Assembly: GCA_965221165.1 (NCBI GenBank)
Contig: CBDCRP010000002.1
Coordinates: 704,001-768,000 of the forward strand
Direction of reading: 5' to 3'
Source: a bacterium
GTDB taxonomy: Bacteria > UBA8248
DNA length: 64,000 bases
Shown: one piece after another, positions 4,589 to 43,939 of the stretch
Position numbering within the stretch: the first letter of the stretch is position 1
Layout: each line of letters opens with the position of its first letter
Translations under genes and position numbers: made by a program
The notes under the pieces: generated by a model
Told to the model about the DNA's origin: nothing
What the model saw: only the letters and a program-made list of their open reading frames with translations
The model's database searches: none

Positions 4589-4589
4589 A

Positions 4590-5762
4590 ATGAGCAAGAC
4601 GCTGTTTCTGCTGGATCTGGAGGACAGATACTTTTTGAGCCACAGGCGCGCGCTGGCGCAGGCGGCCAAGGATGCGGGGTATCGCGTCGTCGTATGCGTG
4701 AGAATCGGCGGAAAATACATGGAACGGATTCGGAAGGAGGGTTTCGAGTGTTTCTCTTTGGGGAGTGAAAACAAGGGAGGAGTCAGCCTCCTGCAGGAAT
4801 TTCTCGCCCTCGCCAAGCTCATACGCGCCTATCGTAAATATCGGCCCCGAATCGCCCACCATTTCGGCGTAAGAAACCTGGTGCACGGCTCGCTCGCCGC
4901 CTGGTTCGCGAAAACGCCATTCGCCGTGAACTCGTTCGTGGGCCTGGGTATGCTGTTTTCCTCAGGCTCGCTCAGGCTTCATTTGTTGAGAAAAATCATC
5001 TTGTTCCTGCTGCGGCATTTCCACCGGAGGAAAAACACCCGGGTGATCGTGCAGAACGACGACGACAAAGAGATTGTTCTGAAAAACGTGCTTCCCGAGG
5101 AATCCCGATTGGCCGTCATTCGCGGTTCGGGCGTCGACGTTCACTCCTTTCGCCCTGCCCCCGAACCTGCGGGCACGCCACTGGCGGTGCTTGCCTCCCG
5201 GATGCTCGCGGACAAGGGGGTGCATGAATTCGTAGAGGCTGCCGCCCTTCTGAGAAAAGAAAACCTCAATATTCGCATGGTGCTGGTGGGAAGCCCGGAC
5301 CCCAAAAATCCATCCTCCATCCCCGATTCCACGCTCTCGAAATGGGACCGCGAGGCCCGGGTCGAATGGTGGGGCTACAGGGAAGACATGCCCCAAGTGT
5401 GGAGAGGCTGCCACATCGCCGTTTTGCCGACATACTACAAAGAGGGGCTTCCGAGAAGCCTGCTCGAAGCAGCGGCATGCGCTCGCCCTCTGGTGGCCAC
5501 CGAGGTTCCGGGATGCCGGGATATCGTGAAAGACGGGGTAAATGGACTGCGCGTCGCGCCTCGCGATCCGAGAGGCCTGGCCGACGCCATCAGAAAGCTG
5601 GCGCGGGATGCCGACCTGAGACGAAGAATGGGGGCGGCGGGGCGGCGCATCGTGGAAAAAGAATTTTCCGATGAAATCGTCTCGGGAGAAATTTTGAAGC
5701 TCTATGAACTCACGGACGCAACGTATGAAGAGTCGGGAAGAAGTGAAGCGAGCCTCAGGTAG
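4590..5762 (+). CDS. GT4-family glycosyltransferase
   Basis: SHRRALAQA, VIVQNDDD, GSGVD, RMLADKGV.EF, EGLPRSLLEAAA. Confidence 0.9.
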   Translation: MSKTLFLLDLEDRYFLSHRRALAQAAKDAGYRVVVCVRIGGKYMERIRKEGFECFSLGSENKGGVSLLQEFLALAKLIRAYRKYRPRIAHHFGVRNLVHGSLAAWFAKTPFAVNSFVGLGMLFSSGSLRLHLLRKIILFLLRHFHRRKNTRVIVQNDDDKEIVLKNVLPEESRLAVIRGSGVDVHSFRPAPEPAGTPLAVLASRMLADKGVHEFVEAAALLRKENLNIRMVLVGSPDPKNPSSIPDSTLSKWDREARVEWWGYREDMPQVWRGCHIAVLPTYYKEGLPRSLLEAAACARPLVATEVPGCRDIVKDGVNGLRVAPRDPRGLADAIRKLARDADLRRRMGAAGRRIVEKEFSDEIVSGEILKLYELTDATYEESGRSEASLR

Positions 5763-5808: not shown

Positions 5809-6480
5809 CTAGGCGACATACCCCCGTATGCGCAAAAAGGCGAGCATCGTCAGGAGTATCACTTGTAAATCCATAGAAAACGAGTAATTCAGAATATAGT
5901 ATAAATCGTGCTCCAGCTTGATTCTGTAGTCTTCTATCTGATCGACATGGCCCTGCCGAATTTGCGCCCACCCCGTTATTCCTGCGGGAACGAGTTCGCG
6001 GTATTCGAATTCGGGATAATGTTTTTTGGCTATCTCAAGCGTCTTGATGTACTCCGCCCTGGGGCCGACGAGACTCATATCCCCCTTGATGACGTTCCAG
6101 AGTTGCGGAAATTCATCGAGATGATACAGGCGCAAGAAACGCCCGAGAGGGTAGACTCTCGGATCGTTTTCTTTCGTCGAAATAGTTCCTTCCGGCCGAT
6201 CCGCATTCACGCGCATCGTCCGAAATTTGTAGAGAGTGAACAACCTACCGTATTGGGTGACGCGGGCTTGAGAATAAAATATCGGCCCCTCGCTCACGAG
6301 CTTGATCGAGATGGCGATGAGGAGGCCGAAAGGGACGAACAGGAGCAGGATCGCGACACTGAAAACCAAATCCAGCGCGCGTTTGCATAAATATTGGTTC
6401 CGGCTCAGGACTTGCTCACTCTTCAGGACAGAGAATTTCCCGGCATGGGAAATGGACTCCAAAGAAATACGGCCTGGCAT
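5809..6480 (-). CDS. Bacterial sugar transferase (priming phosphoglycosyl transferase, catalytic domain)
   Basis: KRALD, YKFRTM, DPRV, LDEFPQLWNVIKGDMSLVGPR, GITGWAQI. Confidence 0.92.
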   Translation of the reverse strand: MPGRISLESISHAGKFSVLKSEQVLSRNQYLCKRALDLVFSVAILLLFVPFGLLIAISIKLVSEGPIFYSQARVTQYGRLFTLYKFRTMRVNADRPEGTISTKENDPRVYPLGRFLRLYHLDEFPQLWNVIKGDMSLVGPRAEYIKTLEIAKKHYPEFEYRELVPAGITGWAQIRQGHVDQIEDYRIKLEHDLYYILNYSFSMDLQVILLTMLAFLRIRGYVA

Positions 6481-7153: not shown

Positions 7154-8605
7154 ATGAACCCCTCATTTCTGGCATATGGGACCATGGCGCTCGGAGCCGC
7201 CGCGATTATCTTGACGAGCCTATGGAACCTCGGAGCCGCAGGCGCGCTGTTCTTGTTCCTGAACCCGCTCGTCAACATCGAGGTCGCTTTCGGCGATACG
7301 GGAAGAAGCATCTCGTACGACAAGCTGGCGATCATGGCCCTGGTTTCGGGTTTCGCGTGGCGTGTCTTCAGAAAACAAAGCGATGTGCATCTCAAAAACA
7401 AACCCTTCATCCGCTACTTATGGTTGCTCTACATCGCCTGGAGTTTCGTGGCGGCATGGCTGAGTGGCGCGCCCGTCAAACAACAACTCTGGGGCCTCGC
7501 CGAAACGATCGCATACTTCATCACCTTTCTCGCTTTTCTCGATATCTGCGCAGAGGAAACCTCCCGCAACCGGATTCTCAAAGCCATTCTCTATGGCGGC
7601 GTCATCATGCTGGCGGCCGTCGCATTCCAGAATCTGACGTATCAAATCACTTTGAACATCTGGGATTGGCGCCACAGCTTCCGCGCCGATTTGCTGTATT
7701 CGTCATTTCCCCGGATGTTCTTCGGCTTTCGGCCCGGCCCAATCGGACATCCGAATTTTCTCGCCGCTTATCTGATTTTATGGGCTACTATCTACCCCCT
7801 GCTTTTGCGCATGTCCTCCCGCCTGGCGGGACTCTTCATCTTCACCGCACACCTCATCATATTGGCGTCCGCAGGCAGTTATGGAGGAATTCTGGGCTTC
7901 GCCATCTGCTGCTTGGCAGTTTTGTATGTCACCAAGCCGCATCCAACGACGATTGTTTGCGGCCCCACTCCCCACTCCAAAACCCGTCTGCTCCCGCATA
8001 TCCTGGCCGCTTGCTTCATCCTGGTGATAGGGACCGCCATCGCCAATGACGGAGACTTCATGGGCTTATCGTTCCTGCCGAGAATCTACATACACCGGGT
8101 TGGTGGGAAAATGCTCTCCGAGCGACCCCTGGCGGGTTATGGAAATGGTCTTTTTCCGCAAACTTTTCAGGAAAAGGAGAGAGATTATGCGCAAAAAGAC
8201 GGGCTGAAAATACCACCCTGGAGGATGAAGGCTTCCCATTCGCCGAGAACAAACCATTCCCAGGGCCTGGGAGCAGACCATTCCAGTGGGAAAGCACACG
8301 AAAATATCCCGACACTCTCGGCCCATTCCTCCTATCTCAAGACCTTCGTCGAATCAGGCCTTCCGGGAGGGCTTCTTTTTCTTGGCCTGCTGATGGGAGG
8401 ACTCCTGGAGGCGTATCTTCGATTGAGAAAAACGGGTCGACTTTCGATTCGCTCGCCCGAGGCCTGGGGATGGGCCGCCTGCATCGGCGTGTGCTTTCAG
8501 GCCGGAACCGAGAACATTTTTTCATCGCCTAAGATTTCCGTTCTCTATTGGGCCATCACGGCGTATTGCCTGACGGTGAAATCCACGAAAACGAAAAACC
8601 TCTAG
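7154..8605 (+). CDS. O-antigen ligase/polymerase (Wzy_C-like) membrane protein
   Basis: Many TM helices; GHPNFLAAY, RPLAGYG, AHSSYL..FVESGL.G motifs. Confidence 0.8.
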   Translation: MNPSFLAYGTMALGAAAIILTSLWNLGAAGALFLFLNPLVNIEVAFGDTGRSISYDKLAIMALVSGFAWRVFRKQSDVHLKNKPFIRYLWLLYIAWSFVAAWLSGAPVKQQLWGLAETIAYFITFLAFLDICAEETSRNRILKAILYGGVIMLAAVAFQNLTYQITLNIWDWRHSFRADLLYSSFPRMFFGFRPGPIGHPNFLAAYLILWATIYPLLLRMSSRLAGLFIFTAHLIILASAGSYGGILGFAICCLAVLYVTKPHPTTIVCGPTPHSKTRLLPHILAACFILVIGTAIANDGDFMGLSFLPRIYIHRVGGKMLSERPLAGYGNGLFPQTFQEKERDYAQKDGLKIPPWRMKASHSPRTNHSQGLGADHSSGKAHENIPTLSAHSSYLKTFVESGLPGGLLFLGLLMGGLLEAYLRLRKTGRLSIRSPEAWGWAACIGVCFQAGTENIFSSPKISVLYWAITAYCLTVKSTKTKNL

Positions 8606-10017
8606 ACGAGCTCCGCCAAAACTTCACGATACAGATAGCGCACGAAACAGAGCAGGATGGCGAACAGCCAGTAGGGATAAAAGTGCGCCGTGGTGGAAAC
8701 GCCGACGAACAAGGCTGCGACAGTAGAAAAAATGACGGCGAAAGGCATCACGACGGCAAGTGAATTCTCATGCGGCGGCAAGCGCATGATCCTGAAAAAA
8801 TACCTCACGCCCGTGACAAGCATGGCCATTATCAAAAGGAGTCCCAACAATCCCAAATCCACGATAAAATTCATTGGCAAGCTATGCAGGGAAACCGGCG
8901 CGCTCTCCCTCGGATTATCCTGAAACAAATCCGAGGTCGACCACCCCCGAATACCCGATTCATAGCCGGTGATGTCGCCATACACATAACCCGAGAATGT
9001 GGCCGGCGTACCCTTCCAGTATCCGTACAAAAATCCATGTCGTGGCCCGCCTCCCAGAAAAGGCCGTTCGAAAAGCACATCCGATGCGCGCGCGTGCTGA
9101 AAAAGTCTCTCCTTCACGCTCATGGACAGATTCGACGCTTCGATGAACTCTTCTCTCACCGCTTTTCCCATCATCACCGAAGCACAAACACAGAGGAGGA
9201 ACATCGAGGTCGTGAGACAAGAAACGCCAAAAGACCTCATCTTCTTGTGTGCGCCTGCGCGCTCTCTGAATTTCAGGAAAAAGACGATGATGAGGAATAC
9301 GCCCAGAAACAAAGCAAGAATCGGAACGCGTCGCCATGTGGAGAAAAGCATAAGCATTCCGGTGGATGAGGTGAGCAAATAAAAATAGCCTCCCCTTCTC
9401 CAGAAAAAATAAAAGGCGACGCCCGCCAGTATCAGCCCGAGCCTGCTGGAGACGATGTGGTGCCGCGTGAACATGCCGATAAAAAATTGTCCATCATGAT
9501 TCAGCGAATACGGGTTGGGGATTCTCAGGTAATAGAAAAGAATGCTCTCGATACCCATCACCAAGGCGACCCGGAATACACTCTGGAGCGCGCCTTCGAA
9601 CTCATCCCTGCCCCACCCGTTGTTTCGAATCAGATACCATACGAGCATGCCGTCCACATAGGGTACGGCATCGGCCAGAATCCGGTAGAGGGGCACGGAC
9701 GTCTTGATGGGGTCGCCTTGTAGGTAGCCACCTACAATCCCTGCCCAGAATATCGTCCAGAACCAGAGGGCGGCTGCGCCGAACGCCGGTGTTGGTTTTC
9801 TCGTCCCGAACCGAATGGCCTCCATCGCCCACACGCCGCACAACAAAAGGAAAAGGAGCATGTAGACCTTGTACGGACCCACCAGATGGCCCGGGAAATA
9901 GGGGACGCCCTCCCACGGAATGAGAAAATAAATCGCGTGCAGGCGAATAACCGCATTGGTGAAGCGAAAAGGAGAGAGTTTCTTTTCTCCTGAAACACGA
10001 GAAGCGCTCAAAACCAC
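8602..10017 (-). CDS. O-antigen ligase/polymerase-like membrane protein
   Basis: Many TM helices; ERPFLGGG and LHSLPMNFIVDLGLLG resemble Wzy_C motifs. Confidence 0.7.
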   Translation of the reverse strand: MVLSASRVSGEKKLSPFRFTNAVIRLHAIYFLIPWEGVPYFPGHLVGPYKVYMLLFLLLCGVWAMEAIRFGTRKPTPAFGAAALWFWTIFWAGIVGGYLQGDPIKTSVPLYRILADAVPYVDGMLVWYLIRNNGWGRDEFEGALQSVFRVALVMGIESILFYYLRIPNPYSLNHDGQFFIGMFTRHHIVSSRLGLILAGVAFYFFWRRGGYFYLLTSSTGMLMLFSTWRRVPILALFLGVFLIIVFFLKFRERAGAHKKMRSFGVSCLTTSMFLLCVCASVMMGKAVREEFIEASNLSMSVKERLFQHARASDVLFERPFLGGGPRHGFLYGYWKGTPATFSGYVYGDITGYESGIRGWSTSDLFQDNPRESAPVSLHSLPMNFIVDLGLLGLLLIMAMLVTGVRYFFRIMRLPPHENSLAVVMPFAVIFSTVAALFVGVSTTAHFYPYWLFAILLCFVRYLYREVLAELV

Positions 10018-10106: not shown

Positions 10107-10928
10107 CTATTTTCGAACGCCGAGGCGCCTGGAAAAATAGCCTCTCTTTAGCCACATGCGCACCCTATGCGGCAACATGCGATACGAAAACCAAAGCGGC
10201 AACAACGCGCGATGCAAGAGACCGCCTCCCAACACGCGAATCGCCTTGTTTTGCAGGGCGATTCCATCGAGCACATAGCGGAGCCTCGCACCCCGCTCGA
10301 AAAACTGCTTCGCATGAATTCTTTTCGCCGCAACGGGAATTTTTAACGCCCCGAGCTTCATTCCGCTTTCATGCAACCGGACATACAGGTCCCAATCAAG
10401 CTGACTGCTGCGATTCTCGTTGTAGCCTTGAATCTTCTTTATCGCCTCGCTTCTTACGAACAACGAGGTGTGAACCACGGGGTTAAAAAACATGAGTTGC
10501 CTTCTAAAGTCCCTTAGCGAGGTCCTTTTATCCTCTGCTCCAAATGCGGGCCACTGGAGAACATCTTTTGCATGAAAGGCGAACAGGGGTGAGACGACGG
10601 CGGAATAATCCGGAAAACATTCAAGCGCCGATTTTTGCATTTCAAATCTTTTGGGATGCGACAAATCATCGGCGTCATGCCTGGCGATAAATTCACCTCT
10701 GACCTCGCGCATACCCAGGTTGAGGGCTTTCGCGAGTCCGACTCTTCCCGCTTCTATCAGACGAATCCTGGGATCGCGGAATTGTTTCAGTATGCGAATC
10801 GTATCGTCCGTGGAGCCATCGTCGACGATGAGGCATTCGAAATCGGATTCCGTCTGCTCCAGTATGCTCTTCACCGCCTGTGCGATAAATTCCTCGGCGT
10901 TGTAAGACGTCATCAGAACGCTTATCAC
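10107..10928 (-). CDS. GT2-family glycosyltransferase
   Basis: ISVLMTSYN, IVDDGSTD, IARHDADD. Confidence 0.92.
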   Translation of the reverse strand: MISVLMTSYNAEEFIAQAVKSILEQTESDFECLIVDDGSTDDTIRILKQFRDPRIRLIEAGRVGLAKALNLGMREVRGEFIARHDADDLSHPKRFEMQKSALECFPDYSAVVSPLFAFHAKDVLQWPAFGAEDKRTSLRDFRRQLMFFNPVVHTSLFVRSEAIKKIQGYNENRSSQLDWDLYVRLHESGMKLGALKIPVAAKRIHAKQFFERGARLRYVLDGIALQNKAIRVLGGGLLHRALLPLWFSYRMLPHRVRMWLKRGYFSRRLGVRK

Positions 10929-10959: not shown

Positions 10960-12885
10960 TCAAGCGACCGCTGAACGGTAGGGGTCCAAGATTTCCCGGA
11001 ACCAAAGCTCCAAAACCACCAAAAACCATATGAGAGGGTAAGCGGATTTCCCTTCCCTGAAACGGGCGTATAACTTCCCCACTTCTTTGGGGGAGAAAAT
11101 CCCTCTTCTGCGGAGCGACTCCTCGCTGAGCGCATCCTCGACGATTTCACGCAAATCCTCTTGCATCCACTTCGCCATAGGAAAATCGAAGCCCTGTTTT
11201 CTCCTCGCGGAAACCCCGGGAGGGATGACATCCCGAAGCGACGCCTCCAGCAATCTCTTCGGGTGTCCCCATTTCTTCTCCCACCCCTGCGGCAAGCCGC
11301 ACACGAATTCCACGATGTGATGATCGACGAACGGCACCCGCACTTCCAGTGAATGGGCCATGCTCATCGCATCGGTATCCCGCAACAATCTCCATCCCAT
11401 ATACACCTGCATTTCGAGTTCGCTCAGAATCCTCCAGGGCCTCTCGCCGACGCGGACCAACGAGGCGAGCATCGCGAGAATATCCTCATCCGTTTCGCGC
11501 TCCTGGAAGTGGGCTCGCAGTTGCGGGGAATACAAAGCTCTCTTTTCTTCGGGCCACGACAAAAAGCGCGCCAGAGCGTACAACCCAACCGGCGATTCCA
11601 CCCATTGCAGCCTACTGAACTTGTGGATTCGCTCCGAAGACATGGCCGAGCCATACCGGAGCATGTGCGAGAGAGGCTTCGCGAGGGTTTTTCTCGCCAT
11701 CAAAGGCAATTTCCCCCAGGCGCGCGATAATTCCCACCAACGCGGTATCAGGCGAAACGAGTCGTAGCCGCCGAAAATCTCATCTCCGCCAAGACCGGAC
11801 AAAGCGACGGTAACGCCATCTTGCTTCGCTGCCTGAGATACGAGATAGGTATTAACACCATCGAAGCTGGGCTGGTCCAGATGCCGCACGATGCGGGGGA
11901 GTTCCTCGGCCACGTTCGAGCCTTTGACCACGATCTCCAAGTGGCGCGTGGAGAAGGATTGCGCCGCCGCTCTCGCATATTTCCTCTCATCGTACCCTTC
12001 CGGAGCGTCATCGAAACCGATGCAATAAGTCCTCACGGGCTTATCGGCCCGGCGCGACATCAACCCCACTACCGCCGAAGAATCCAGGCCACCACTCAAA
12101 AAAGCTCCTATAGGAACGTCGCTTATCTTGTGTAATTCAACGCTTTTCTCCAACAAGTCTCGTAGTCGGGGGACTATTTCTTTTTCAGCACATCGCGTCG
12201 TTCCGGCTGCCGGCATTTTCCACCACTGCTCGATGGATGTTCCCTTTTTCGTGATGCGCATTCGGTACCCCGGCGGCAACGCCCTCACGCCCTTCAACAG
12301 CGTGCGCGTCCCGGGAACGAAGCCCAGGGAAATGCTGCTATCGAGAGAATCGAGATCGATCTCCGGGCAAAGCAAGCCGCTTCTCACCAACGCTCCCAGT
12401 TCCGAGGCAAACGCCCATCCACCCGCGATCGGCGTGTAGTACAAAGGTTTGACGCCGAGTCGGTCACGCGCCAAAAGCAACGACCGACGACCGGCGTCCA
12501 TGATTGCGAATGAAAACATCCCCCTTAGCAAACGGGTGCACTCATCCTCTTCCTCCTCATATAGACGCAACAGGACCTCCGTATCGGAACACGACCTGAA
12601 GGTATGGCCGCGACCCGTCAGATGCTCTCTCAATTGTCTGAAATTATAGATTGCCCCATTCAGCGCGACCCAGATTTTCTCATCTTCGCTGGACATGGGT
12701 TGTTTCGCCGCCGAGCTCGGGTCGATGATACCCAAGCGCCTCACGCCGATGCAGGTTGCGCCGAAACGGTGAAGCCCCATGCCGTCGGGACCGCGATGCG
12801 TCATCGCATCGCACATCCGCGCAACGCCTTCCTCTATCGAGGATGGAGAAAGTTTGGTCGAGGTGATTCCGCAAATTCCGCACAT
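10960..12885 (-). CDS. asnB: Second asparagine synthase-like amidotransferase
   Basis: MCGICG, HRGPD, LSGGLDSS, SGLGGDEIFGGY, DAMSMAHSLEVRVPF. Confidence 0.95.
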   Translation of the reverse strand: MCGICGITSTKLSPSSIEEGVARMCDAMTHRGPDGMGLHRFGATCIGVRRLGIIDPSSAAKQPMSSEDEKIWVALNGAIYNFRQLREHLTGRGHTFRSCSDTEVLLRLYEEEEDECTRLLRGMFSFAIMDAGRRSLLLARDRLGVKPLYYTPIAGGWAFASELGALVRSGLLCPEIDLDSLDSSISLGFVPGTRTLLKGVRALPPGYRMRITKKGTSIEQWWKMPAAGTTRCAEKEIVPRLRDLLEKSVELHKISDVPIGAFLSGGLDSSAVVGLMSRRADKPVRTYCIGFDDAPEGYDERKYARAAAQSFSTRHLEIVVKGSNVAEELPRIVRHLDQPSFDGVNTYLVSQAAKQDGVTVALSGLGGDEIFGGYDSFRLIPRWWELSRAWGKLPLMARKTLAKPLSHMLRYGSAMSSERIHKFSRLQWVESPVGLYALARFLSWPEEKRALYSPQLRAHFQERETDEDILAMLASLVRVGERPWRILSELEMQVYMGWRLLRDTDAMSMAHSLEVRVPFVDHHIVEFVCGLPQGWEKKWGHPKRLLEASLRDVIPPGVSARRKQGFDFPMAKWMQEDLREIVEDALSEESLRRRGIFSPKEVGKLYARFREGKSAYPLIWFLVVLELWFREILDPYRSAVA

Positions 12886-12999
12886 GATTATCGAGCCATC
12901 TTTTTACCTGAAAAAAGAAACCGCATATCACCTCCCTGACGACGCCAGGTTCCGAACCCCGGAAGAATCGAAACGATTGGTGAATTCATCCAAATCGCC

Positions 13000-14796
13000 T
13001 TACGACTGCAATTCCACGAATTTTCTATACCGGCCTCCCCTCCGCATAAGAGCGAGGTGGTCTCCTTCCTCGACAATTCGCCCTCCCTCGAGAACCAGAA
13101 TCTTGTCCGCGTCTTTTATCGTGGAAAGACGGTGAGCGACGATCAGGATGGTCATTCGCCCGCTGAGATTCCGCACGGCCGTCTGGATAAGACGCTCGAA
13201 CCCGCTATCGAGCGAACTCGTCGCCTCGTCCAAAACCAGTATTCGAGGAGAGCGAACCAGGGCTCTTGCGAGAGCCAAACGCTGTTTTTGGCCCCCGGAT
13301 AATTTGAAGCCGCGATTTCCTATGATCGTTTGATATCCCTCGGGCAATTCCCTTATGTATTCATGTGCATAGGCGGTTTCCGAGGCCTTTCGCACCTGCG
13401 TTTCACCGGCTTCCAAGTTCCCGTAGCGGATATTGTTGTAAACCGTATCGTTGAAAAGGTAGGGGTCCTGCTCCACCACCCCGATCAGGCTTCGCCATTC
13501 GCTCACGGAAACATCCCTTAAATCCACGTCATCGACATAAACGACGCCTTGCGTCGGATCGTGAAGACGCAGGAACAGATCGACGAAAGTCGTCTTACCG
13601 CTTCCCGAGGTGCCCACGAGCGCCGTCGTCGTATATTTTTCAATCGATGCGTTTATTCCGCCCAGCGCATCGCCCTGCGCGCCCGGATAGGAAAACGATA
13701 CATTTTCGAACCTCACCCCCTTTTTCAGGGAACCGACCAAAATGCCTCTTTCCCCGGAACTCTCCTGGCTTTCGCTTTCCGTATATTCTCGAATTCTCGT
13801 GAGATGGGGAGCGAACTCGTTCACGATGAGCCAATAATTGCCTATCAGCTTGAGCTTGGGCAGAACCTGCAAAAAGATCGCCAAAAACACCGTCAGCGTG
13901 AAAAAGGGAATTTCCAGAAATTTGATGGAGAAAACCAGACAAAGAACCATCATCAAGAAAATCAACGGCTCATAAAAAAACGACGCGATAATTCTATTGT
14001 CCATGATCTGGACGCAGAGCCGGCGATAGTCGCTCGCGCGCATCAAGTAATTTTCGACGTGGTGCATGAGGTTTCCAAACACCTTCACCGTCTTCACGCC
14101 CGAGAAAACATCATGAAGATAGGAACTGATGTCCTCCACACCCTGTGATTCTTTCGCGCCCTTCAAATACGCCTTTTGAAACCAAGGGAGCAGAAAAGAA
14201 CAAGAAATCGACGACAGACCGAGAACCAGAACAGTGAGCGAAAAAGAAACCATCAAATTGAGGATCAGATACAGAACACAGAAAAGAATACTGTTCATAA
14301 TGAGCATCATATGCTCGAAGATAAAACCGCAATTGTTCGCGGAAGTGAATTGGACGGCAACGAGAGCGCCGGTTTTTTTCCGGTAAAAAAATGAAAGCGG
14401 AAGATTCATGAGATTTCGGAAGGCTTTTTCTCTCATGTCGTATGCGATTCTCGAACTCAGCACCCGTGCAAAACGCATGGAGATCGCAACCAGAGCGTAT
14501 TTGATCAGCATGGCGAACGTGAACAGAGTGATGAGATTGATGAGCGAAAACTCCAGACCCAGGATTCCAAATCCCCACTCGGCGCACGTCGTGAAGATAT
14601 GGTTTGTTTCAATTCCTTGAATCGTTTGAAATATGGGCATCAGTAAACCCAAGCCGACGCTCTCGAACATCGTCGCCAAAACGAGGACGAAGGAATACAA
14701 GAACAGGAAATCCCTGTAATTCCGGGCAACGGCGAGAATATCCCTTTGTTTGTCGCTCAACATGTGGTTTTTCGGACTACGCCGGAGATTTTCCAA
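13000..14796 (-). CDS. ABC transporter permease/ATPase (MsbA/PglK-like glycan flippase)
   Basis: N-terminal TM domain; GTSGSGKT, LSGGQKQR, LDEATSSLD, AHRLST. Start may be 14763. Confidence 0.9.
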   Translation of the reverse strand: MENLRRSPKNHMLSDKQRDILAVARNYRDFLFLYSFVLVLATMFESVGLGLLMPIFQTIQGIETNHIFTTCAEWGFGILGLEFSLINLITLFTFAMLIKYALVAISMRFARVLSSRIAYDMREKAFRNLMNLPLSFFYRKKTGALVAVQFTSANNCGFIFEHMMLIMNSILFCVLYLILNLMVSFSLTVLVLGLSSISCSFLLPWFQKAYLKGAKESQGVEDISSYLHDVFSGVKTVKVFGNLMHHVENYLMRASDYRRLCVQIMDNRIIASFFYEPLIFLMMVLCLVFSIKFLEIPFFTLTVFLAIFLQVLPKLKLIGNYWLIVNEFAPHLTRIREYTESESQESSGERGILVGSLKKGVRFENVSFSYPGAQGDALGGINASIEKYTTTALVGTSGSGKTTFVDLFLRLHDPTQGVVYVDDVDLRDVSVSEWRSLIGVVEQDPYLFNDTVYNNIRYGNLEAGETQVRKASETAYAHEYIRELPEGYQTIIGNRGFKLSGGQKQRLALARALVRSPRILVLDEATSSLDSGFERLIQTAVRNLSGRMTILIVAHRLSTIKDADKILVLEGGRIVEEGDHLALMRRGGRYRKFVELQS

Positions 14797-14959
14797 AACA
14801 CGAACGATTTCACGATGCCGAAAGGCTCGAGCGCATCGAGTGAATCACTCCAAACGCCTCGGAGTTACGGCATGCGCTTCATCGTCGCTCACTCTTGGGA
14901 CGGGTCAATCTCCGGACCTTTCCCTCGTGGTGGGTCGTCTTTATCTCGTGGAGTAGCGT

Positions 14960-16369
14960 TTATGGACTTTGAACATCAGAGAGTTTATCAGGCGGAGCCG
15001 TTTTCATCCAGTCAGCCGCTATCTTCTTCGCCAGCCAAAACTCATACGCGGAATTGATCTTCACGCTTTCCTCGGGAAGCATCGTGATATGGCCTATCTT
15101 TTCTCCTAAAAATTTTCCGGCTAGTACCGATTCCACCCGGTTCAGGTAAATCGCCCCGTTTTCCTTGAACAACGCCTTTCGCTCCAGGCGCAACGTTCTC
15201 TCGAGAGAGCCGTTGACGGGAGTGAGTCCGTTTTTCCCGTGATGATAGAAAAACGAAAGATCCTCGGATATGGATATCACGGAATCAACGCCGAATATCG
15301 TCATGGTGTCCACGGCTTTGTCGATATGCCACCCTCTGCGAAAAGGGGTGTTGACGTAGCAGACGCAAACCGCGTCGGGTGTATATTCGCTCTCCTCCTC
15401 CAGCGTCCTCAAGGCATGAAGCGCCGTATCCGCCATCTTGGCAGTACGTTTCGCCGGCGCTTCGGGCCTAAAGAGGCCATCCACTCCCTCGAAGCGCTCC
15501 ACATAATCCAAAACGTCTTCATCGTTTGAGGATACGACTATCTTGTCGACGGAGCGCGCTTCCTGGATTTGCTCCAGGGTTCGTTCCAATAGCGGTTTTC
15601 CCATGAACTGCGTAAAAGGATTCGCGAGTTCAAATCCCGCATCCACGACTATGGGAACGAGCGCCAACACTTTCGGCTTGCGGGAAAGGCTCATCTCCTC
15701 CACCACCCGCCCTTTGATTTTGCGGCGCGCATCCAGGAGCAGACTCCGGGATTTCGACAGGCTCTCGCCGTGGCGGCGATAATAAAACAGGGGCAGATTC
15801 ACGTTGTAGGGACGATGTCTCTGAATGAATTTCAACCACATCCCGTAACCGTCCTGACGATTGAATTCCTCGAAATAGCCGCCTATTTCCATCAGAATTT
15901 CCTTGCGGATCATGGTGCATGCGCCATGGGCCGGGAGGTCCAGTAAATCGACTTCCTCTCCTATTTTCTGGCGACGGACAATTTCCATGATCTCCCCATC
16001 GTGGTCCACGTGATAATAATCCGGGTACACCAGACCTACGCCGGGTTTCGTGTCCAGGATGTTGGAGAGAACCAGCAGAATGTTCTCATCCAGAAAATCA
16101 TCCGCATCCAGCCGCATCAGGTATTCACCCTCGGCGGCGCGCAAGGCGATGTTGTTCGTGAAATTCAATCCCTGGTTCTCTTGCTCGAGAATGCGAATCT
16201 TGGGATGCGCTCTGTAGGGTTCGAGTATTTCCGCCGTGTTGTCCGTCGAGCCGTCGTCGATGACGATCAACTCCCAATCATCGGTGGTCTGCTTCAAGAC
16301 GCTTTGAATCGCGGCGTCGAGAAAACGGGCGTAGTTATAGGTAGGAATGTAAACCGTAATCTTAGGCAT
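14960..16369 (-). CDS. GT2 glycosyltransferase fused to a degenerate acylneuraminate cytidylyltransferase-like domain
   Basis: N-terminal IPTYN/IDDGSTD/RLDADD; C-terminal GKPLLERT, IVVSSND, TPFR, ENGAIY, ESVKIN. Confidence 0.8.
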   Translation of the reverse strand: MPKITVYIPTYNYARFLDAAIQSVLKQTTDDWELIVIDDGSTDNTAEILEPYRAHPKIRILEQENQGLNFTNNIALRAAEGEYLMRLDADDFLDENILLVLSNILDTKPGVGLVYPDYYHVDHDGEIMEIVRRQKIGEEVDLLDLPAHGACTMIRKEILMEIGGYFEEFNRQDGYGMWLKFIQRHRPYNVNLPLFYYRRHGESLSKSRSLLLDARRKIKGRVVEEMSLSRKPKVLALVPIVVDAGFELANPFTQFMGKPLLERTLEQIQEARSVDKIVVSSNDEDVLDYVERFEGVDGLFRPEAPAKRTAKMADTALHALRTLEEESEYTPDAVCVCYVNTPFRRGWHIDKAVDTMTIFGVDSVISISEDLSFFYHHGKNGLTPVNGSLERTLRLERKALFKENGAIYLNRVESVLAGKFLGEKIGHITMLPEESVKINSAYEFWLAKKIAADWMKTAPPDKLSDVQSP

Positions 16370-16408: not shown

Positions 16409-18001
16409 TTATTCCACCATGTCCATGGAGAGGGACTGATCCGCCTGGATGTCCGTTTTCGCTCGTCTGCCGATCAATTCATCCATCAACCAGCCCGGAA
16501 GGCCGTCGGCGGGCCTCTTCATACCCAGCATGGAAGATTCTATGGTCTCTCCGCGCCCAATATCGCGTTCGGCGACGATGCTGCGCCGCGCGCTGCTTCG
16601 GGCGCTTTTTTCTCTCTCGGCGACTCCGAGCGCACCGTCTCCCAAAACGCTCTCCGCAAGGCGAACGTTTTGCACCATCTTCCTCAAATCCTTCGGGTTC
16701 ATCGAGAAGAAATGCCCCGAATCGCTCAACTCCCGATCCAGGGTATAGTGTTTTTCGATGACCTTCGCCCCCAGAGCCACACCCAGAGAAGGGATGATCA
16801 TGTGCGCATCAGGCTCGGTATGGTCGGAGAGACCAACGCTGATGCCGGGGTATTTTTCCTTCAAAGAGGAGATGCGAAGGAGGTTCGCGTCTTCATTCGG
16901 CGCCGGATAACTCAACATGCAGGCCATGAGGATGAGCTGGTGGTTGCCCGTTGAGAAAATAGTGGCGATAGCCCGCTCAATCTCCTCTACCGTCGAACCG
17001 CCGCTCGAAAGAATAACGGGCTTGCCGAAACCGGCCACGCACCTGAGCAATCGACTGTCGGGAAGATCGCATGAGGCTATCTTGAAGAGCGGCATGCCTA
17101 AATCGTTCAGCATCTCGGCGCTATCGAGGTCGAACGGCGTGGAGAACGGGATGATGCCCTTCTCGAGACCATATGCGAAAAGCTCTTCATATTCCGGGGA
17201 GCCGAAGCGATCAAGTTTCCGGTAATACTCGATTTGCGGCATCTGTTTGCCTTGCCAGTAGGTCGTGGCTCCTTTGCGCGTCAAACGCTCCGCCTTGTAT
17301 GTCTGGAACTTGATCGCATCCGCTCCGGCTTCGGCGGCTAGGTTGATCATCTCCTTGGCGGTTTGCACGTCGCACATGTGATTGCAGGCGGCTTCGGCAA
17401 TCAGAAAGGCGGGATGGCCCTCTCCTATCATTTTGTCCCCGACGGCGATTTCCTTCGAATACGGACTCATCTCATGCGCAGCCATGGCGAGATCGAAAGC
17501 GCAGTGGATGTTGATGCAGTCATCCTGAACGGCGGATGGATACAGGGGCGGGGTCGTCGTCAACGCCCTCATGCTCATGATGCGAAGCGCCCCGTTTCGC
17601 TTTCCATTCCTGTCCACCGTGCACAGGTCGTCTATCTGGTTGTCTTGGACGTATCTCAACAGGGCGTCCAAGTCGCTTTTTCTGTTCGGATGATCGGGTT
17701 GAACCCCGACGAGGAAAGACACGTTCGCACGACCACATTCCCTGGCGACATCCCGGTACACCTCGACCAGGGGCGTTTCGCCGCTCAGCACATCGCCCCT
17801 AAAATGAGTCATCGCCCCGTTTCGCCTGCCGATCTCGGCGATTTCCTCGGAATCAGTGGATACGACGATTTTATCCACGCTCCGAAACTTCCTGACGTAA
17901 CGAACCGCATGCGCCACGAGAGAAAGGCCGTCGATTTCCAAGAGGTTCTTGTCCGCCAGACGATTCGAACCCCGCTTGGCCGGTATGACGGCGACGATCA
18001 A
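16409..18001 (-). CDS. Cytidylyltransferase (NeuA-like) fused to N-acylneuraminate synthase (NeuB-like, with SAF domain)
   Basis: IPAKRGSNRLADKN; IAEAACNH, GADAIKFQT, FKIASCD, GLSDHT, IEKHYT, RRSIVA...KRPADG. Confidence 0.9.
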   Translation of the reverse strand: MIVAVIPAKRGSNRLADKNLLEIDGLSLVAHAVRYVRKFRSVDKIVVSTDSEEIAEIGRRNGAMTHFRGDVLSGETPLVEVYRDVARECGRANVSFLVGVQPDHPNRKSDLDALLRYVQDNQIDDLCTVDRNGKRNGALRIMSMRALTTTPPLYPSAVQDDCINIHCAFDLAMAAHEMSPYSKEIAVGDKMIGEGHPAFLIAEAACNHMCDVQTAKEMINLAAEAGADAIKFQTYKAERLTRKGATTYWQGKQMPQIEYYRKLDRFGSPEYEELFAYGLEKGIIPFSTPFDLDSAEMLNDLGMPLFKIASCDLPDSRLLRCVAGFGKPVILSSGGSTVEEIERAIATIFSTGNHQLILMACMLSYPAPNEDANLLRISSLKEKYPGISVGLSDHTEPDAHMIIPSLGVALGAKVIEKHYTLDRELSDSGHFFSMNPKDLRKMVQNVRLAESVLGDGALGVAEREKSARSSARRSIVAERDIGRGETIESSMLGMKRPADGLPGWLMDELIGRRAKTDIQADQSLSMDMVE

Positions 18002-19293
18002 TTTTTCGCTCCCCTTGTTTTCGTGGATGAAATCACGGGCATGATTTGCCCTGCCTGCCGAAGCACAATGAGCTTCGAATTCGGCCCCGTCGCCTCCATA
18101 GCGTCATCGACCGCCGCCTGTATCGACACGGCCCAGCCGAATCCCATCCCGTTCGCTTCCTCACGGTAAATATGAGGGGAAACCAATACCCCCCTCACGC
18201 GCTTGGAAATGATTCTGCCGATGGCCACCAGCGTATAGGCGAGAATTTTTTCGCGAAATTCACCCGCTTCGACCTTCTGGTAAAGCGAGTCGGGATCCCG
18301 GAATCCATGACGCTTAAAATTCGGGAATTGCGGTGAAACGCCTTCCCGACAATCCGCAGCCAATATGATCACCCCGTTGTCCCGACAGACGAGGTCCGCC
18401 GCGCATACGGCTTTAATGGACTGGCGCAAATCGATATCAGACGGATAGGCTTCCGCCACGACGACCTCGGCCGCTGCATCGACCGGCACTCCGTATAGCT
18501 CCAGACATTGTTCACAGCCCACCTTGTGGGCCGATTCCACGTCTCCCGCAACGACGTCATAGATTCTTTCATCGTCCATCATGATCGTATTGACCATAAA
18601 GCCCAGGCCGGCCCGGCGCGCGATGCGAACAAACGCCTCCCTCACCTTGTTGTCGAAATTGCCGAGAATTTCGCTCATTTCATAATCCAGAGCGGCCCAA
18701 TGGGTCGCCTCTATCGTGGCCTCGCCGCAAATACCGGGCATCACGCTCTTCGCCCCGCCGGAGAACCCCGCAGTCGCATGGGGTATGATGCTGCCGATGG
18801 ATATGAGGAAATCCGTTTCCAGGATTTCCCTGTTCATCTGCACGTCGAAACCCAGTTCGCTCCTTCCCAATGAAACCAACTGCGAGGGGTTTTCCCACTC
18901 ATGGTTCAGAATTTGGAATCGCGCGACCAGATCATCGCCGAACTTGCTCCGTATCTCCTTCTCCGTCATGGAGCGATGCGTGCCCAGCCCAATCAGAATG
19001 CGGATAGACGTATCCGGGACGTTCGCCTCGGCGAGTTCCTCCAGGATGATGGGCACTACGCGATGAAGAGGGGTATGGCGCGTATTGTCATCGGTGACGA
19101 TCAATACCCTTTCCGCGCCTTTGGAGGCCTCCCGAAGAGGGGGAGCGCCGATTGGGTTTCGAATCCGCTCGCGCAGGGCTTCATCGTCGAGGCCGTTGCT
19201 TTTCGGCAAGGCAGGTCCGTAGACGCCTACCAGCCGTCCATCTTCAACTTCGAAATCATCAAACAGATCATTCGTCAGAGATATCCTGGCCAT
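17998..19293 (-). CDS. Nickel-pincer-dependent lactate racemase (LarA) family hydroxyacid racemase/epimerase
   Basis: DDNTRHTP, GLGTHR, IIPHATAGFSGGAKSVMPG, TIEATH, DLRQSIKA. TGATG overlap with the upstream gene at 19291-19295. Confidence 0.88.
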   Translation of the reverse strand: MARISLTNDLFDDFEVEDGRLVGVYGPALPKSNGLDDEALRERIRNPIGAPPLREASKGAERVLIVTDDNTRHTPLHRVVPIILEELAEANVPDTSIRILIGLGTHRSMTEKEIRSKFGDDLVARFQILNHEWENPSQLVSLGRSELGFDVQMNREILETDFLISIGSIIPHATAGFSGGAKSVMPGICGEATIEATHWAALDYEMSEILGNFDNKVREAFVRIARRAGLGFMVNTIMMDDERIYDVVAGDVESAHKVGCEQCLELYGVPVDAAAEVVVAEAYPSDIDLRQSIKAVCAADLVCRDNGVIILAADCREGVSPQFPNFKRHGFRDPDSLYQKVEAGEFREKILAYTLVAIGRIISKRVRGVLVSPHIYREEANGMGFGWAVSIQAAVDDAMEATGPNSKLIVLRQAGQIMPVISSTKTRGAKN

Positions 19294-21179
19294 CAGCGCA
19301 TTCCCGACCCGTCTTTTTTCCATAATTCAGAATCGGGCGAGGAGAAAATATCCACCCATTCCGAGCGCCAGCTTTTACTGCGCCTGTAATAACGATTCGC
19401 GAATTCATCGACGGCCTCTCGCGTGCGGCCATCCTCCCACCATGAATCGATATCGGGCCAGATGCCGTTCAGATGCCTCGCCGCGCTCTCGGCGGATGAA
19501 TGATGCACATTCACGTCTGAGAGTTTTTCGAGGCATGATTTCGCATGAGGTGAAATTCGCCAGGCGTTTTCCCCCCCGAAGAAGATGGTCGGAATACCCG
19601 CCGCCATCGTGAATGCCGCCGTCGTCCCCGGACGATCGAGAACACAAACGCCGCATCCCGATAACACAGGCGACAGCCTGCTCGGCATGTATCTCACCAA
19701 TTTTCCGCGAAGGATTTTTAGTTCAGGATATCTCTTTTCCAGGTAGGCCTGATCATATCGATTGTTCCTTCTGCGCATATAAGGCCTGTACCACAAGGCG
19801 GAGCGAAGCTCCTCGCCCAGATGCTCGATAAAACTCACCTTCTCCATCATGTACGGCGGTATGTCTTCGGGGAGAGCGTCCGCCGCCAACCATTTCAGAT
19901 AGGGGGTGAGTTCGGAACTGACCAAGATGATGGATGCGCTCCGCTTTTTGCTCCGCTTCATTTTTGAAAGAAAAGGAGAGGCCGCCGGCATGGCGCTTAC
20001 CCGATAATCGGATTGACGCTTCCAACCCCATGATACGAACCGATCGGCCGTCTCATACTCCGCAAGATGATGCCAGGGCGCAGATTCAATTAAACCGTAG
20101 TTTCCCCCATGCTGATTGATGACCAGCCTTACGGGGCGTTTTTCGAGGAGAGCGGCCACATAAAAATTCGACTGATCGTCATTGCCCAGATGGCCATAGA
20201 CGATGGTATCCATCCAGGGTGCCGTCGCTTTTACTTTTATGAGCGCTTTTTTCTCGTTTTCCAGAAAATGTTCCGTGAATATCTTCGGCATCATCTCCAA
20301 AGCGAGTGCATCCAGAACTTTCAGGAAAATTCCGGCTTCCGCAGCGGCGATGTCCTGAATCGATTGGAGTTCTTCGACTACATTATCCTTGGTGATATTT
20401 TCATTTTCCGCTTCGGATATTTTCTGAAACGCTTTTGCGGCCTCCTTCCAACGCCTCCTGTTTCGAAACAGCATGCGCAAGGAAATATACAAGGCATCCA
20501 GCGGACTCAAACCATGCACTTTATGAAATTGCACGCATCCCGGATTAGAGGATAGGATGCTCGCCCAACGGTATACCTCCATTTTTCTTTGCACTTTCCT
20601 GAATATGGCGTAGTTCTCCGTTGCAAACGAGCCAGGGGGACGGCTGGCGGAAAAATACGCATCTTCCGGGGCGGGCGCACCATCGCTCATGACCCACCCT
20701 TGCGGTTTGTATGCGCGGAGAAATCTGCTGAAAATGAGCCGATTCAGCGGATCGTCAATTATCATCTGATTAAAATGGGGCGTCGTGATGGATGAGAGGC
20801 TTTCATCCTCAGGAGAGATATATACGAGATACCGAACACCGCTCCTTACCCGGTTCCTGACGCGCAAAAACCGCTCGAATGAGCACATGACCAAATGGAG
20901 AAGCCATGGCATCAACAAGATGCGCCAGTAGCGATTCGAATAAGAACGCTTGTGTCTTTCGTTTTGCTTAAAGGCCAATCTTGCAATGTAAAATTCACAA
21001 ACCTTTTCCAGCTTTCGCGAGACGAGGCGGACCTCTTCGCTTTTGAGCGTCGGCTCGATTCCGTATTTTCTCCAATCCCACTCAAAAAACTGAGACTCCG
21101 GAAGTGACCAGGGGCCCAAATGCTCGGCCTGTCGCTCGTTCGGGATGGAATCGATTTTCGTCAGGATCAACTGTTTCAT
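19293..21179 (-). CDS. LIC12162-family putative transferase
   Basis: HLGPWS, SNRYWRILLMPWL, QHGGNYG, FVSWGW pattern recalled for this family, which occurs in nonulosonic-acid loci. Confidence 0.7.
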   Translation of the reverse strand: MKQLILTKIDSIPNERQAEHLGPWSLPESQFFEWDWRKYGIEPTLKSEEVRLVSRKLEKVCEFYIARLAFKQNERHKRSYSNRYWRILLMPWLLHLVMCSFERFLRVRNRVRSGVRYLVYISPEDESLSSITTPHFNQMIIDDPLNRLIFSRFLRAYKPQGWVMSDGAPAPEDAYFSASRPPGSFATENYAIFRKVQRKMEVYRWASILSSNPGCVQFHKVHGLSPLDALYISLRMLFRNRRRWKEAAKAFQKISEAENENITKDNVVEELQSIQDIAAAEAGIFLKVLDALALEMMPKIFTEHFLENEKKALIKVKATAPWMDTIVYGHLGNDDQSNFYVAALLEKRPVRLVINQHGGNYGLIESAPWHHLAEYETADRFVSWGWKRQSDYRVSAMPAASPFLSKMKRSKKRSASIILVSSELTPYLKWLAADALPEDIPPYMMEKVSFIEHLGEELRSALWYRPYMRRRNNRYDQAYLEKRYPELKILRGKLVRYMPSRLSPVLSGCGVCVLDRPGTTAAFTMAAGIPTIFFGGENAWRISPHAKSCLEKLSDVNVHHSSAESAARHLNGIWPDIDSWWEDGRTREAVDEFANRYYRRSKSWRSEWVDIFSSPDSELWKKDGSGMR

Positions 21180-21327: not shown

Positions 21328-21405
21328 TGGCGTCCCCAAGGGGATTCGAACCCCTGTTGCCGGCGTGAAAGGCCGGTGTCCTGGGCCAGGCTAGACGATG
21401 GGGAC
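21328..21405 (-). tRNA. tRNA-Glu (TTC)
   Basis: GTCCCCATCGTCTAGCCTGGCCCAGGACACCGGCCTTTCACGCCGGCAACAGGGGTTCGAATCCCCTTGGGGACGCCA; cloverleaf, TTC anticodon, encoded CCA. Confidence 0.97.
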
Positions 21406-23873: not shown

Positions 23874-24293
23874 TTATGCCACTTGCCAAGGATTGACGAT
23901 ATCGAGGTCCAGTCCATCGAAATCCCCCGTATTCCGCGTCGCAAGCGAGAGCTCGTGGGCTTTGGCCGTCCCGGCAATCAGCGCATCGCCCAAGTGCAGC
24001 ACCCGGCCCGAGTGATGCGCCTTACCCCGCAGTCGAGCAGCCCATTCAGCTTCCAAACGCTCCAAAGCCAAGATGCGATCTTCGAACTCGACGACGAAAT
24101 CGGATATGAACCGCCGCAATCTGTCCTGACGGCTTCCCTGAGGAAGGAGTTGCAAGCCGAACTCCAATTCATGCACCACGACCGAGGACACCCACAACTC
24201 CTGCTGCTCCGACAGAAACGCGATGACTCTCGGGTCCGGCGAGGCTTTCGTCAGTTCCGATACCACATTGGTGTCTATGAGATAACCGCTCAT
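23874..24293 (-). CDS. vapC: VapC PIN-domain toxin
   Basis: YLIDTNVVSE...DALIAGTA...LATRN.GDF...NPW; ATGA overlap with the antitoxin. Confidence 0.92.
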   Translation of the reverse strand: MSGYLIDTNVVSELTKASPDPRVIAFLSEQQELWVSSVVVHELEFGLQLLPQGSRQDRLRRFISDFVVEFEDRILALERLEAEWAARLRGKAHHSGRVLHLGDALIAGTAKAHELSLATRNTGDFDGLDLDIVNPWQVA

Positions 24294-24568
24294 TCGATAT
24301 CCGGCACCAGGACCGGAATCTCGCGCTCTGGTTCGCGTCGATCCGGGATTTCGAGATTGTCCCCACGGGGCGTATTCTCGACCAGCCACTGACCCAAGGG
24401 CTTGCGATCCGACGTATGGGTACGCCATAGGCGTTCCGGGGCCACAACGAACGCCTTTCTCGTACCGATTCGCTGCGGCCCTTCCTCCTCGGCAAGACGC
24501 AGGATTTCCGAAAGGCGCGCTTTCGCCTCGGCGACGGTCCAGATACGGCTGGGTTTCGAATTGACCAC
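24290..24568 (-). CDS. Phd/YefM family antitoxin
   Basis: WTVAEAKARLSEILRLAEEEGPQRI; upstream of vapC. Confidence 0.88.
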   Translation of the reverse strand: MVNSKPSRIWTVAEAKARLSEILRLAEEEGPQRIGTRKAFVVAPERLWRTHTSDRKPLGQWLVENTPRGDNLEIPDRREPEREIPVLVPDIE

Positions 24569-24593
24569 GGCTAAGACTCCTCATGACAATAAA

Positions 24594-24631
24594 ATATAGT
24601 CTAATATAGACCATATCAGATAATCTGTCAA
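24594..24631 (-). promoter_or_regulatory. Sigma70 promoter with overlapping operator palindrome for phd-vapC
   Basis: TTGACA-N17-TATATT on the minus strand (24631-24603); inverted repeat ATATAGTCTA-ata-TAGACCATAT (24594-24616) covers the -10. Confidence 0.7.
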
Positions 24632-43925: not shown

Positions 43926-43939
43926 GTCGGGGAGTGCCC

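Follow-up and report, generated by a model that had tools for sequence, protein, structure and literature searches.

Why should a gene of the lactate racemase (LarA) family, whose products use nickel-pincer nucleotide (NPN) as their cofactor, be wedged between genes for building a surface glycan? The question is raised by a stretch of 64,000 nucleotides from a bacterium of the GTDB lineage UBA8248 (assembly GCA_965221165.1, contig CBDCRP010000002.1, positions 704,001 to 768,000), hereafter the window. Here, a LarA homologue of 431 aa (LarAH; minus strand, 17998..19293; Lar_N + LarA_C), a candidate NPN epimerase or isomerase, is encoded between a 628-aa LIC12162-family transferase (minus strand, 19293..21179; TIGR04331) and a fusion of a short cytidylyltransferase with a NeuB-type synthase and an SAF domain (minus strand, 16409..18001; Pfam CTP_transf_3, NeuB and SAF). 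The linkage of the LarA clade to glycan genes suggests that a surface sugar acid is made with the help of a nickel-cofactor step that has not been described. That the homologue is a working NPN enzyme, belonging to a separate, conserved clade dedicated to surface-glycan synthesis, is a proposition for which, judging from sequence comparison, we see the chances as evenly balanced.

The three genes are packed on the minus strand of this Nitrospinota-type genome without spacers, at the start of a surface-polysaccharide locus of ~20 kb. Both overlaps by which the original prediction had singled out the larA-like gene were confirmed by the coordinates of the open reading frames. The stop codon of the LIC12162-type gene (TGA, 19295-19293) and the in-frame ATG of the LarA gene (19293-19291) form TGATG, with one common A, and the LarA gene, which stops with TGA at 18000-17998, shares 4 nt with the fusion gene, which starts with TTG at 18001, the letters being TTGA. 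An alternative in-frame ATG at 19323 would yield a protein of 441 aa and an overlap of 31 nt with the LIC12162 gene, but the start at 19293 agrees with the length of database orthologues; likewise, the TTG start of the fusion gene is aligned with the Met of its homologues.

By its domains, fold, catalytic and cofactor residues, and by the presence of larB, larC and larE in the same genome, the homologue is a member of the LarA superfamily. It matches Lar_N and LarA_C with 196 and 44.7 bits, respectively, and alignment places the catalytic His108 and His174 (L. plantarum numbering) at H106 and H172, and Lys184, His200 and Arg75 at K182, H198 and R72; the equivalents of Gln295 and Lys298 are likewise kept. 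Lys184 is the covalent tether of the cofactor, His200 the nickel ligand, and Arg75 takes part in cofactor and substrate binding (PMC11770544). The equivalents of R75, H108, H174, K184, H200, Q295 and K298 are invariant in all 145 clade sequences, so that the retention of the His/His/Lys/His motifs, first noticed in the single protein, holds throughout the clade. An AlphaFold model, built from 17 sequences with a mean pLDDT (predicted local distance difference test) of 87.5, resembles the LarA structures 5HUQ_A and 2YJG_A with a template modeling (TM) score of 0.83 to each. Together, alignment and model support the view that the protein would be a catalytically intact LarA-family member. Public annotation names its homologues 'nickel-dependent lactate racemase', and the Protein Atlas offers only generic lactate-racemase clusters. 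As to fused forms, a search of proteins of 756-2155 aa gave none at E <= 1e-20, which is weak evidence, and none of about 650 aa was present among the best 150 of 6423 representatives.

The cofactor could be made by the same organism. The genes larE, larB and larC, proposed earlier as a check on the enzyme, lie side by side in the genome at G000:C3:406810-409573, on a contig different from that of the window (LarE, TIGR00268, 347.7 bits; LarB, NF033503, 295.8 bits; LarC, PF01969, 456.5 bits), and the window homologue is the sole Lar_N match in the genome. The assembly comprises 3 contigs and is 96% complete with 8.5% contamination; the ensuing worry that enzyme and cofactor genes come from different organisms is answered by single-contig relatives, e.g., G014, in which a LarA orthologue and larC reside on one chromosome.

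The specificity of the homologue appears to have diverged from that of the characterized LarA enzymes. It reaches the curated cut-off of none of the six NCBIfam LarA-type models. Its highest scores are those with the malate racemase LarAH6 (NF052593; 293.5 bits against a cut-off of 500) and with lactate racemase (NF033504; 287 against 460), and others are those with LarAH10 (270.5 against 540), the malate racemase LarAH5 (NF052595; 230.3 against 462) and the hexonate type (78 against 500). At positions 175, 176, 358 and 359, which determine specificity in the family (L. plantarum numbering; PMC11770544), the protein has A, T, Y and T, and Tyr294 is replaced by Arg, a pocket that fits none of the LAR, GntE, HGR and MAR signatures as these are given in PMC11770544. 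Lactate racemase is missed both in score and in the pocket, where A, T and Y stand in place of F, F and W, and malate racemase both in score and at positions 358/359, where Y-T stands in place of H/Q-K. Thus, the early impressions that the substrate pocket differs from that of lactate racemase and that the protein is not a plain lactate racemase are borne out, although the reference motifs given with them fit LarA of Thermoanaerobacterium (PHFF / IYQSVK) rather than that of L. plantarum (SHFF / IYQAVK).

This pocket is not a peculiarity of one sequence. We aligned 296 homologues and drew the line between clade and others at 43% identity with the protein of the window. Among the clade's 145 members the signature is nearly uniform (A175 in 144, T176 in 144, R294 in 145, Y358 in 144 and T359 in 143), and it is all but missing from the others. 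Arg occupies position 294 in only 2 of the 151 others, Trp being the usual residue there, with the proviso that the C-terminal columns are less securely aligned in distant LarA sequences. The clade pocket is, as predicted from these residues, larger, more polar and more cationic; smaller and more polar side chains together with an extra cation would fit a larger, polar, anionic substrate. We therefore regard the clade as a putative new functional variant of the LarA superfamily, outside the lactate, malate and gluconate groups.

What this variant might do is suggested by its neighbors. Using the window's own proteins as queries, we compared 48 loci, 6 from species genomes and 42 from metagenomes, of which 30 encode a clade LarA homologue (at least 43.7% identity) and 18 a non-clade one (at most 41.5%). 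Both a NeuB co-orthologue (43-88% identity) and an orthologue of the adjoining window protein, a fusion of a family 2 glycosyltransferase (GT2) with a cytidylyltransferase-like domain (39-87% identity), are present in 22 of the 30 clade loci, mostly 0-250 nt from the LarA gene and in varying gene order; only one of the two is found in 4 more, all on short contigs. Hence NeuB, the GT2 fusion or both adjoin the LarA homologue in 26/30 clade loci and in 0/18 non-clade loci. In the remaining 4 clade loci neither partner is adjacent; in two of them the sequence stops at the LarA gene or close to it. In the other two, L008 and L009, a block of tailoring genes is inserted, and the GT2 fusion is encoded on the same strand, 10 kb farther downstream. 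Because several loci are duplicates or near-copies (L014 = L015, L026 = L027, L028 ~ L029, and L021-L023), fewer cases than these are independent. A quick maximum-likelihood tree (97 rows) unites all linked loci in one clade, with an SH-aLRT (Shimodaira-Hasegawa-like approximate likelihood ratio test) support of 99, and places all 16 unlinked rows outside it. Members of the clade occur in metagenome-assembled genomes labeled in their source annotations as Nitrospinae, Rectinema, Kiritimatiellae and Deltaproteobacteria, and the co-occurrence with neuB, which the original prediction had set as a check, is found across phyla in close and distant members of the clade alike.

The same association is apparent at the level of whole genomes. 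Among 51 genomes of the phylum surveyed, 22 encode a LarA orthologue and all 22 also encode a GT2 fusion orthologue; the three same-genus genomes that lack the one lack the other as well. In one same-genus genome, the GT2 fusion orthologue was matched in two overlapping pieces (G029:C3:138889-140270), which may reflect a frameshift or an assembly error. The constant partners of the clade are the NeuB-type synthase and the GT2 fusion, the latter, encoded beyond the interval of the original prediction, being the most constant neighbor.

What do these partners make? The NeuB fusion matches CTP_transf_3 (52.6 bits), NeuB (244.7 bits) and SAF (33.4 bits) in Pfam, with the cytidylyltransferase domain at residues ~1-190 and the synthase and SAF domains at residues ~199-530. 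Its nearest solved relatives are SpsE, PseI and NeuB, but it stays below the equivalog cut-offs of NeuB_NnaB (292.3 against 399.65) and PseI (266.1 against 340.25). The N-terminal domain keeps the P-loop but is short, matching positions 1-121 of the 217 of the profile. No match to Epimerase_2 (NeuC/WecB, including the hydrolysing NeuC/LegG type) was found in the 96%-complete genome or in the locus, and a neuraminic-acid (Neu5Ac) pathway in this genome was rejected on that ground. Furthermore, the polysaccharide locus of the window contains no sugar-nucleotide-modifying genes, and the one true DegT gene of the genome lies far from it (C3:462872-463915). For these three reasons, the window synthase probably uses a common sugar, and its product is probably not Neu5Ac.

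The GT2 fusion (minus strand, 14960..16369; Pfam) consists of a GT2 domain (residues 1-~220) and a cytidylyltransferase-like domain (residues ~226-469). The former keeps the DxD motif, with RLDADD invariant in the alignment of orthologues; its nearest relative is chondroitin synthase 2Z87, in the C-terminal domain (E 1.6e-35). The C-terminal domain (14960-15694) aligns to CMP-NeuAc (cytidine monophosphate-N-acetylneuraminic acid) synthetases only from residue 24 or 43 on. In CMP-sugar synthetases, the P-loop and an acidic pair bind cytidine triphosphate (CTP) and magnesium. Both features are lost in all 11 aligned orthologues, which are otherwise well conserved, 'DSIDID' of the N. meningitidis CMP-NeuAc synthetase being aligned to 'ESVKIN'. 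Because these binding motifs are absent, the C-terminal domain is probably not an active cytidylyltransferase; instead, it may bind a sugar acid or the CMP derivative thereof.

The LIC12162 protein, in turn, is a clear member of its family (TIGR04331, 293.5 bits against a cut-off of 225, residues 4-610; precomputed Pfam PF27859). Sequence and profile searches retrieved no solved relative, and the literature we found describes no activity for the family, with one paper merely mentioning it. Its gene stands next to that of the LarA homologue in Nitrospinota loci alone (L008-L015), so that the coupling noticed in the window holds for these loci but is without counterpart in the others.

The wider surroundings of the module are also those of glycan synthesis. 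Eleven diverse metagenome loci scanned against Pfam and NCBIfam are all polysaccharide loci, with glycosyltransferases of families 1 (GT1) and 2, Wzx-type flippases and many methyltransferases. Upstream of the synthase in L020, L021 and L024 lie genes for a GNAT protein, a stand-alone SpsF-like cytidylyltransferase, a GFO/IDH/MocA oxidoreductase, a DegT aminotransferase and a protein of ~365 aa, and in L008 and L009 the same run from GNAT to DegT separates the LarA gene from that of the synthase. Sets of GNAT, cytidylyltransferase, GFO/IDH/MocA and DegT genes are the usual vocabulary of nonulosonic-acid clusters. The ~365-aa protein (L018, L020, L021 and L024) shows faint similarity to Epimerase_2 (E 0.017-0.23 in 3 of the 4 members). 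In L024, an iron-type alcohol dehydrogenase gene followed by a DegT aminotransferase gene stands directly after the ABC exporter (12564-14888); this pair resembles KdnB/KdnA, the makers of 8-amino-Kdo, and, by this analogy, would be a further sign that the product of the module is a tailored ulosonic acid. The recurring block of GNAT, cytidylyltransferase, oxidoreductase and DegT genes (L008 9347-16499, L009 9341-16461, L021 399-6713) also includes an amidase (and a methyltransferase), and its DegT protein is N-terminally extended. Between them, two regions of module loci (L017 13443-14744, L016 3663-6891) encode a phosphoenolpyruvate (PEP) mutase fused to a cytidylyltransferase-like domain, a sign of phosphonate tailoring, as well as another fusion of NeuB with a cytidylyltransferase and an enzyme of the B12-radical-SAM kind.

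Given the observed gene structure, residues, cofactor genes and linkage, we infer a substrate, an epimerized position and an order of steps as follows. The NeuB-type synthase would condense PEP with an aldose to yield a 3-deoxy-2-ulosonic, i.e., sialic-acid-like, acid. The LarA homologue would then alter the configuration of this acid, free or CMP-linked, with a hydride passing to the cofactor, leaving a transient ketone, and returning to the opposite face. The cytidylyltransferase domain would activate the product, and the GT2 fusion, joined in Nitrospinota by the LIC12162 transferase, would place the sugar acid in an undecaprenyl-linked glycan, which the rest of the locus would flip, polymerize and amidate. 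A sugar-acid substrate is favored because the NeuB product is the only acid of the module and LarA enzymes act on acids. On balance, it is about as probable as not that the nickel-pincer enzyme epimerizes or isomerizes the sugar acid of this pathway, in a redox-neutral manner and close to the step of activation.

Several observations weigh against this reading and should be stated together. Canonical LarA chemistry requires that the carbon adjoining the carboxylate carry a hydrogen as well as the hydroxyl group. The products of NeuB, 2-keto-3-deoxy acids, have no such hydrogen at C2, so that a new regiochemistry (e.g., at C4) or an unusual derivative is required. The full conservation of R75, Q295 and K298 argues for an ordinary 2-hydroxyacid substrate. 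The fusion, in the window, of the cytidylyltransferase to NeuB rather than to LarA is awkward for a step between synthesis and activation. One genome (G036; 91% complete, 510 contigs) encodes NeuB and the GT2 fusion on a contig of 8.3 kb, and no LarA orthologue was found in it, with the contig stopping 5 kb upstream of NeuB. Finally, larC is present in 43 of the 51 phylum genomes, some of which lack a window-type LarA homologue, so that the cofactor pathway is not tied to this enzyme, and the notion that the homologue is the lineage's only cofactor client was rejected. The presence of larC in such genomes is explained by the cofactor also serving enzymes outside the LarA fold (PMC13524815). 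A case in point is family f4, in which all 7 genomes have larC and no LarA match was found at E <= 1e-20; lineages of this kind probably hold other users of the nickel-pincer cofactor.

A more specific form of the sugar-acid proposal takes the missing hydrogen at face value. The clade would then comprise the first nickel-pincer enzyme acting on an alpha-keto sugar acid, in which the clade-specific Arg helps to anchor the 2-keto-carboxylate and the hydride is exchanged at a distant carbinol, most simply C4; this must be considered speculative and rather unlikely. Equally tentative is the corollary that 3-deoxy-2-ulosonic acids, free or CMP-linked, would be epimerized or keto-isomerized by this one enzyme in a redox-neutral reaction. 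If true, this could be the missing route to 4-epimers of nonulosonic acids, among which 4-epi-legionaminic acid is described as having a pathway not yet elucidated (PMC5595891).

The best-surviving alternative turns on the same chemistry. The homologue could racemize or epimerize an ordinary free acid, either a 2-hydroxyacid or an aldonate (glycerate, lactate, malate, tartrate or a hexonate), and the isomer so formed would serve the glycan machinery as an aglycone, acceptor or substituent. We judge this unlikely but by no means negligible: it stays alive because a 2-keto-3-deoxy acid offers no C2 hydrogen, yet the classical binding residues of LarA for the carboxylate and the 2-hydroxyl are all invariant and untouched in the clade. 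The nearest characterized relatives are, moreover, racemases of small acids (the clade profile scores Mar2 with 250.8 bits and LarA with 230 bits), and glycerate is the specific substrate of some LarA homologues (PMC11770544). The lack of CTP-binding motifs in the C-terminal domain of the GT2 fusion could also be accommodated, in that this domain may have another ligand and the GT2 domain could glycosylate a hydroxyacid held by the degenerate cytidylyltransferase-like domain. What such a scheme leaves unexplained is the constant partnership with a NeuB-type synthase, and the pocket is unlike the LAR, MAR, HGR and GntE signatures reported in PMC11770544. Nor does the conserved module include an acyl-activating or acyl-transfer enzyme. 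Of the two glycan roles originally proposed, the supply of a sugar-acid epimer thus fits the three-gene module better, whereas the supply of a hydroxyacyl substituent lacks a conserved gene to attach it.

Canonical chemistry would also be preserved if the homologue acted before the synthase, by epimerizing the carboxylate-adjacent carbon of an acid that carries an aldehyde group, for example tartronate semialdehyde or a uronic acid; that NeuB would then condense this acid with PEP into a dicarboxylic 'ulosaric' sugar acid is part of the same scheme, and both steps are quite improbable. The extra invariant Arg could bind the second carboxylate, the two AsnB-like amidotransferases of the locus (see below) could amidate the carboxyl groups, and the nearest relative of the GT2 domain is a glucuronyl-transferase domain. 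Yet the scheme is purely inferential: the module includes no conserved uronate-forming gene, pyranose uronates have no free hydroxyl at the carboxylate-adjacent carbon, and we know of no NeuB-family enzyme that uses acid aldehydes.

That a housekeeping lactate or malate racemase ended up in a glycan locus by chance, as the public name of its homologues might suggest, is very improbable given its scores below both racemase cut-offs, the clade-specific pocket, a start and a stop that overlap flanking glycan genes, the linkage in 26/30 clade against 0/18 non-clade loci and the co-occurrence with the GT2 fusion in 22/22 genomes, and a plain lactate racemase was rejected on all these counts.

The remainder of the polysaccharide locus is in keeping with the assembly of a surface glycan. 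Downstream of the GT2 fusion, the minus strand encodes an ABC exporter or flippase of the MsbA/HepA/PglK type (13000..14796; ABC_membrane + ABC_tran; HepA_fam_ABC, 384 bits, below cut-off), an AsnB-like glutamine amidotransferase (10960..12885; Asn_synthase + GATase_7; TIGR03108, 452 bits, below cut-off), a GT2 glycosyltransferase (10107..10928; Pfam) and, as the last gene of the operon of which the LIC12162 gene is the first, a Wzy_C/O-antigen ligase-like membrane protein (8602..10017; Wzy_C, 29.9 bits, cut-off 31.7). Pfam matches further identify a second Wzy_C protein (plus strand, 7154-8605), a priming sugar transferase, Bac_transf (minus strand, 5809-6480), a GT1 glycosyltransferase (plus strand, 4572-5762), a second AsnB-like amidotransferase (plus strand, 2633-4588) and a methyltransferase (plus strand, 1833-2588). 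A likely role of the AsnB-like protein at 10960-12885 is to amidate a carboxyl group in the glycan, and the occurrence of two such genes (2633-4588 and 10960-12885) within one polysaccharide locus suggests that more than one carboxyl group is amidated.

Directly upstream of the operon, at the edge of the glycan locus, lies a tRNA-Glu gene with anticodon TTC (minus strand, 21328..21405; ARAGORN; Rfam tRNA, 58.8 bits), the sole RNA element detected in the Rfam scan. Scans for promoter-like sites (5 against 8.5 expected) and terminator-like sites (35 against 17.6 expected, none tellingly placed) were uninformative, and PADLOC yielded no defence match for 4 proteins. The glycan locus is bordered on its left by genes for a HigB-like toxin and a helix-turn-helix (HTH) partner (1014-1640), and upstream of the operon a gene for a PIN-domain protein (23874-24614) is flanked by those of an amidohydrolase and an AMP-ligase. 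Farther away, the region 43155-60437 contains three tandem pairs of genes for hydantoinase/oxoprolinase A and B subunits and a gene for a solute-binding protein, adjoining a truncated Mutator-family transposase; it may be an acquired island. The G+C content reaches 0.70-0.71 at 44-48 kb, compared with about 0.55 elsewhere.

To our knowledge, the characterized LarA-family enzymes all racemize or epimerize free 2-hydroxyacids, in catabolism or in the metabolism of cell-wall precursors. Our literature search found no paper that links LarA enzymes to nonulosonic acids or glycan synthesis, in line with the original statement that no such role had been described. The main texts of two superfamily surveys (PMC7583248 and PMC11770544) contain no mention of sialic, neuramin, polysaccharide, glycosyl or cytidylyl terms, and two supplementary files of the former include none of COG2089, COG1083 and COG0367. 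An ISME J paper interprets archaeal LarA as a sign of lactate use and treats it separately from its nonulosonic subject. If the proposed role is true, a rare nickel-pincer cofactor would be extended to the building of cell-surface sugars; the pathways of nonulosonic acids, which shape bacterial surface antigens, would gain a new type of tailoring enzyme; and many genes now annotated as 'lactate racemase' would be given a concrete function.

Among the known systems, one of the closest is LarA itself (L. plantarum 5HUQ/6C1W; Thermoanaerobacterium 2YJG), with which the window homologue shares the two-domain fold, the His pair, the Lys tether, the His ligand and the Arg/Gln/Lys residues; LarA needs LarB, LarC and LarE, all of which are encoded in the genome of the window. 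By contrast, sequence identity is only 29-30%, the LarA pocket of F, F, W and T with Tyr294 contrasts with A, T, Y and T with Arg, and the gene belongs to a glycan operon rather than a lactate operon. Mar2/LarAH6 (6D6Z) is the best-scoring characterized relative (293.5 bits with NF052593; 250.8 bits with the clade profile), but malate racemases carry H/Q-K at 358/359 (PMC11770544) where the window protein has Y-T. The D-gluconate 2-epimerases GntE are LarA-family enzymes that epimerize a sugar acid (PMC7583248); their signature, E, V, A and H, is absent from the window protein, and they are catabolic rather than devoted to glycan assembly. Use of the nickel-pincer cofactor on sugars, beyond the racemization of 2-hydroxyacids, is exemplified by NphT, an NPN-dependent aldo-keto reductase, which differs in its fold and its intermolecular hydride transfer and for which the abstract reports no link to a NeuB-type synthase (PMC13524815). 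A precedent for the proposed step is provided by the EpaA/EpaB and LgaG/AciE-type systems, which 8-epimerize pseudaminic, legionaminic and acinetaminic acids (PMC12053666, PMC7371886). EpaA, a fusion of CTP_transf_3 with an aldo-keto reductase, converts pseudaminic acid (Pse) into its 8-epimer (8ePse) together with the oxidoreductase EpaB (PMC12053666), and a similar cytidylyltransferase-coupled fusion is described in PMC7371886. As proposed here for the LarA clade, these enzymes use hydride chemistry to tailor the stereochemistry of a finished nonulosonic acid, in physical coupling with a cytidylyltransferase domain; unlike it, they employ aldo-keto-reductase and dehydrogenase folds and a pair of enzymes that oxidize and then reduce, where the window protein would rely on a single hydride-shuttling cofactor.

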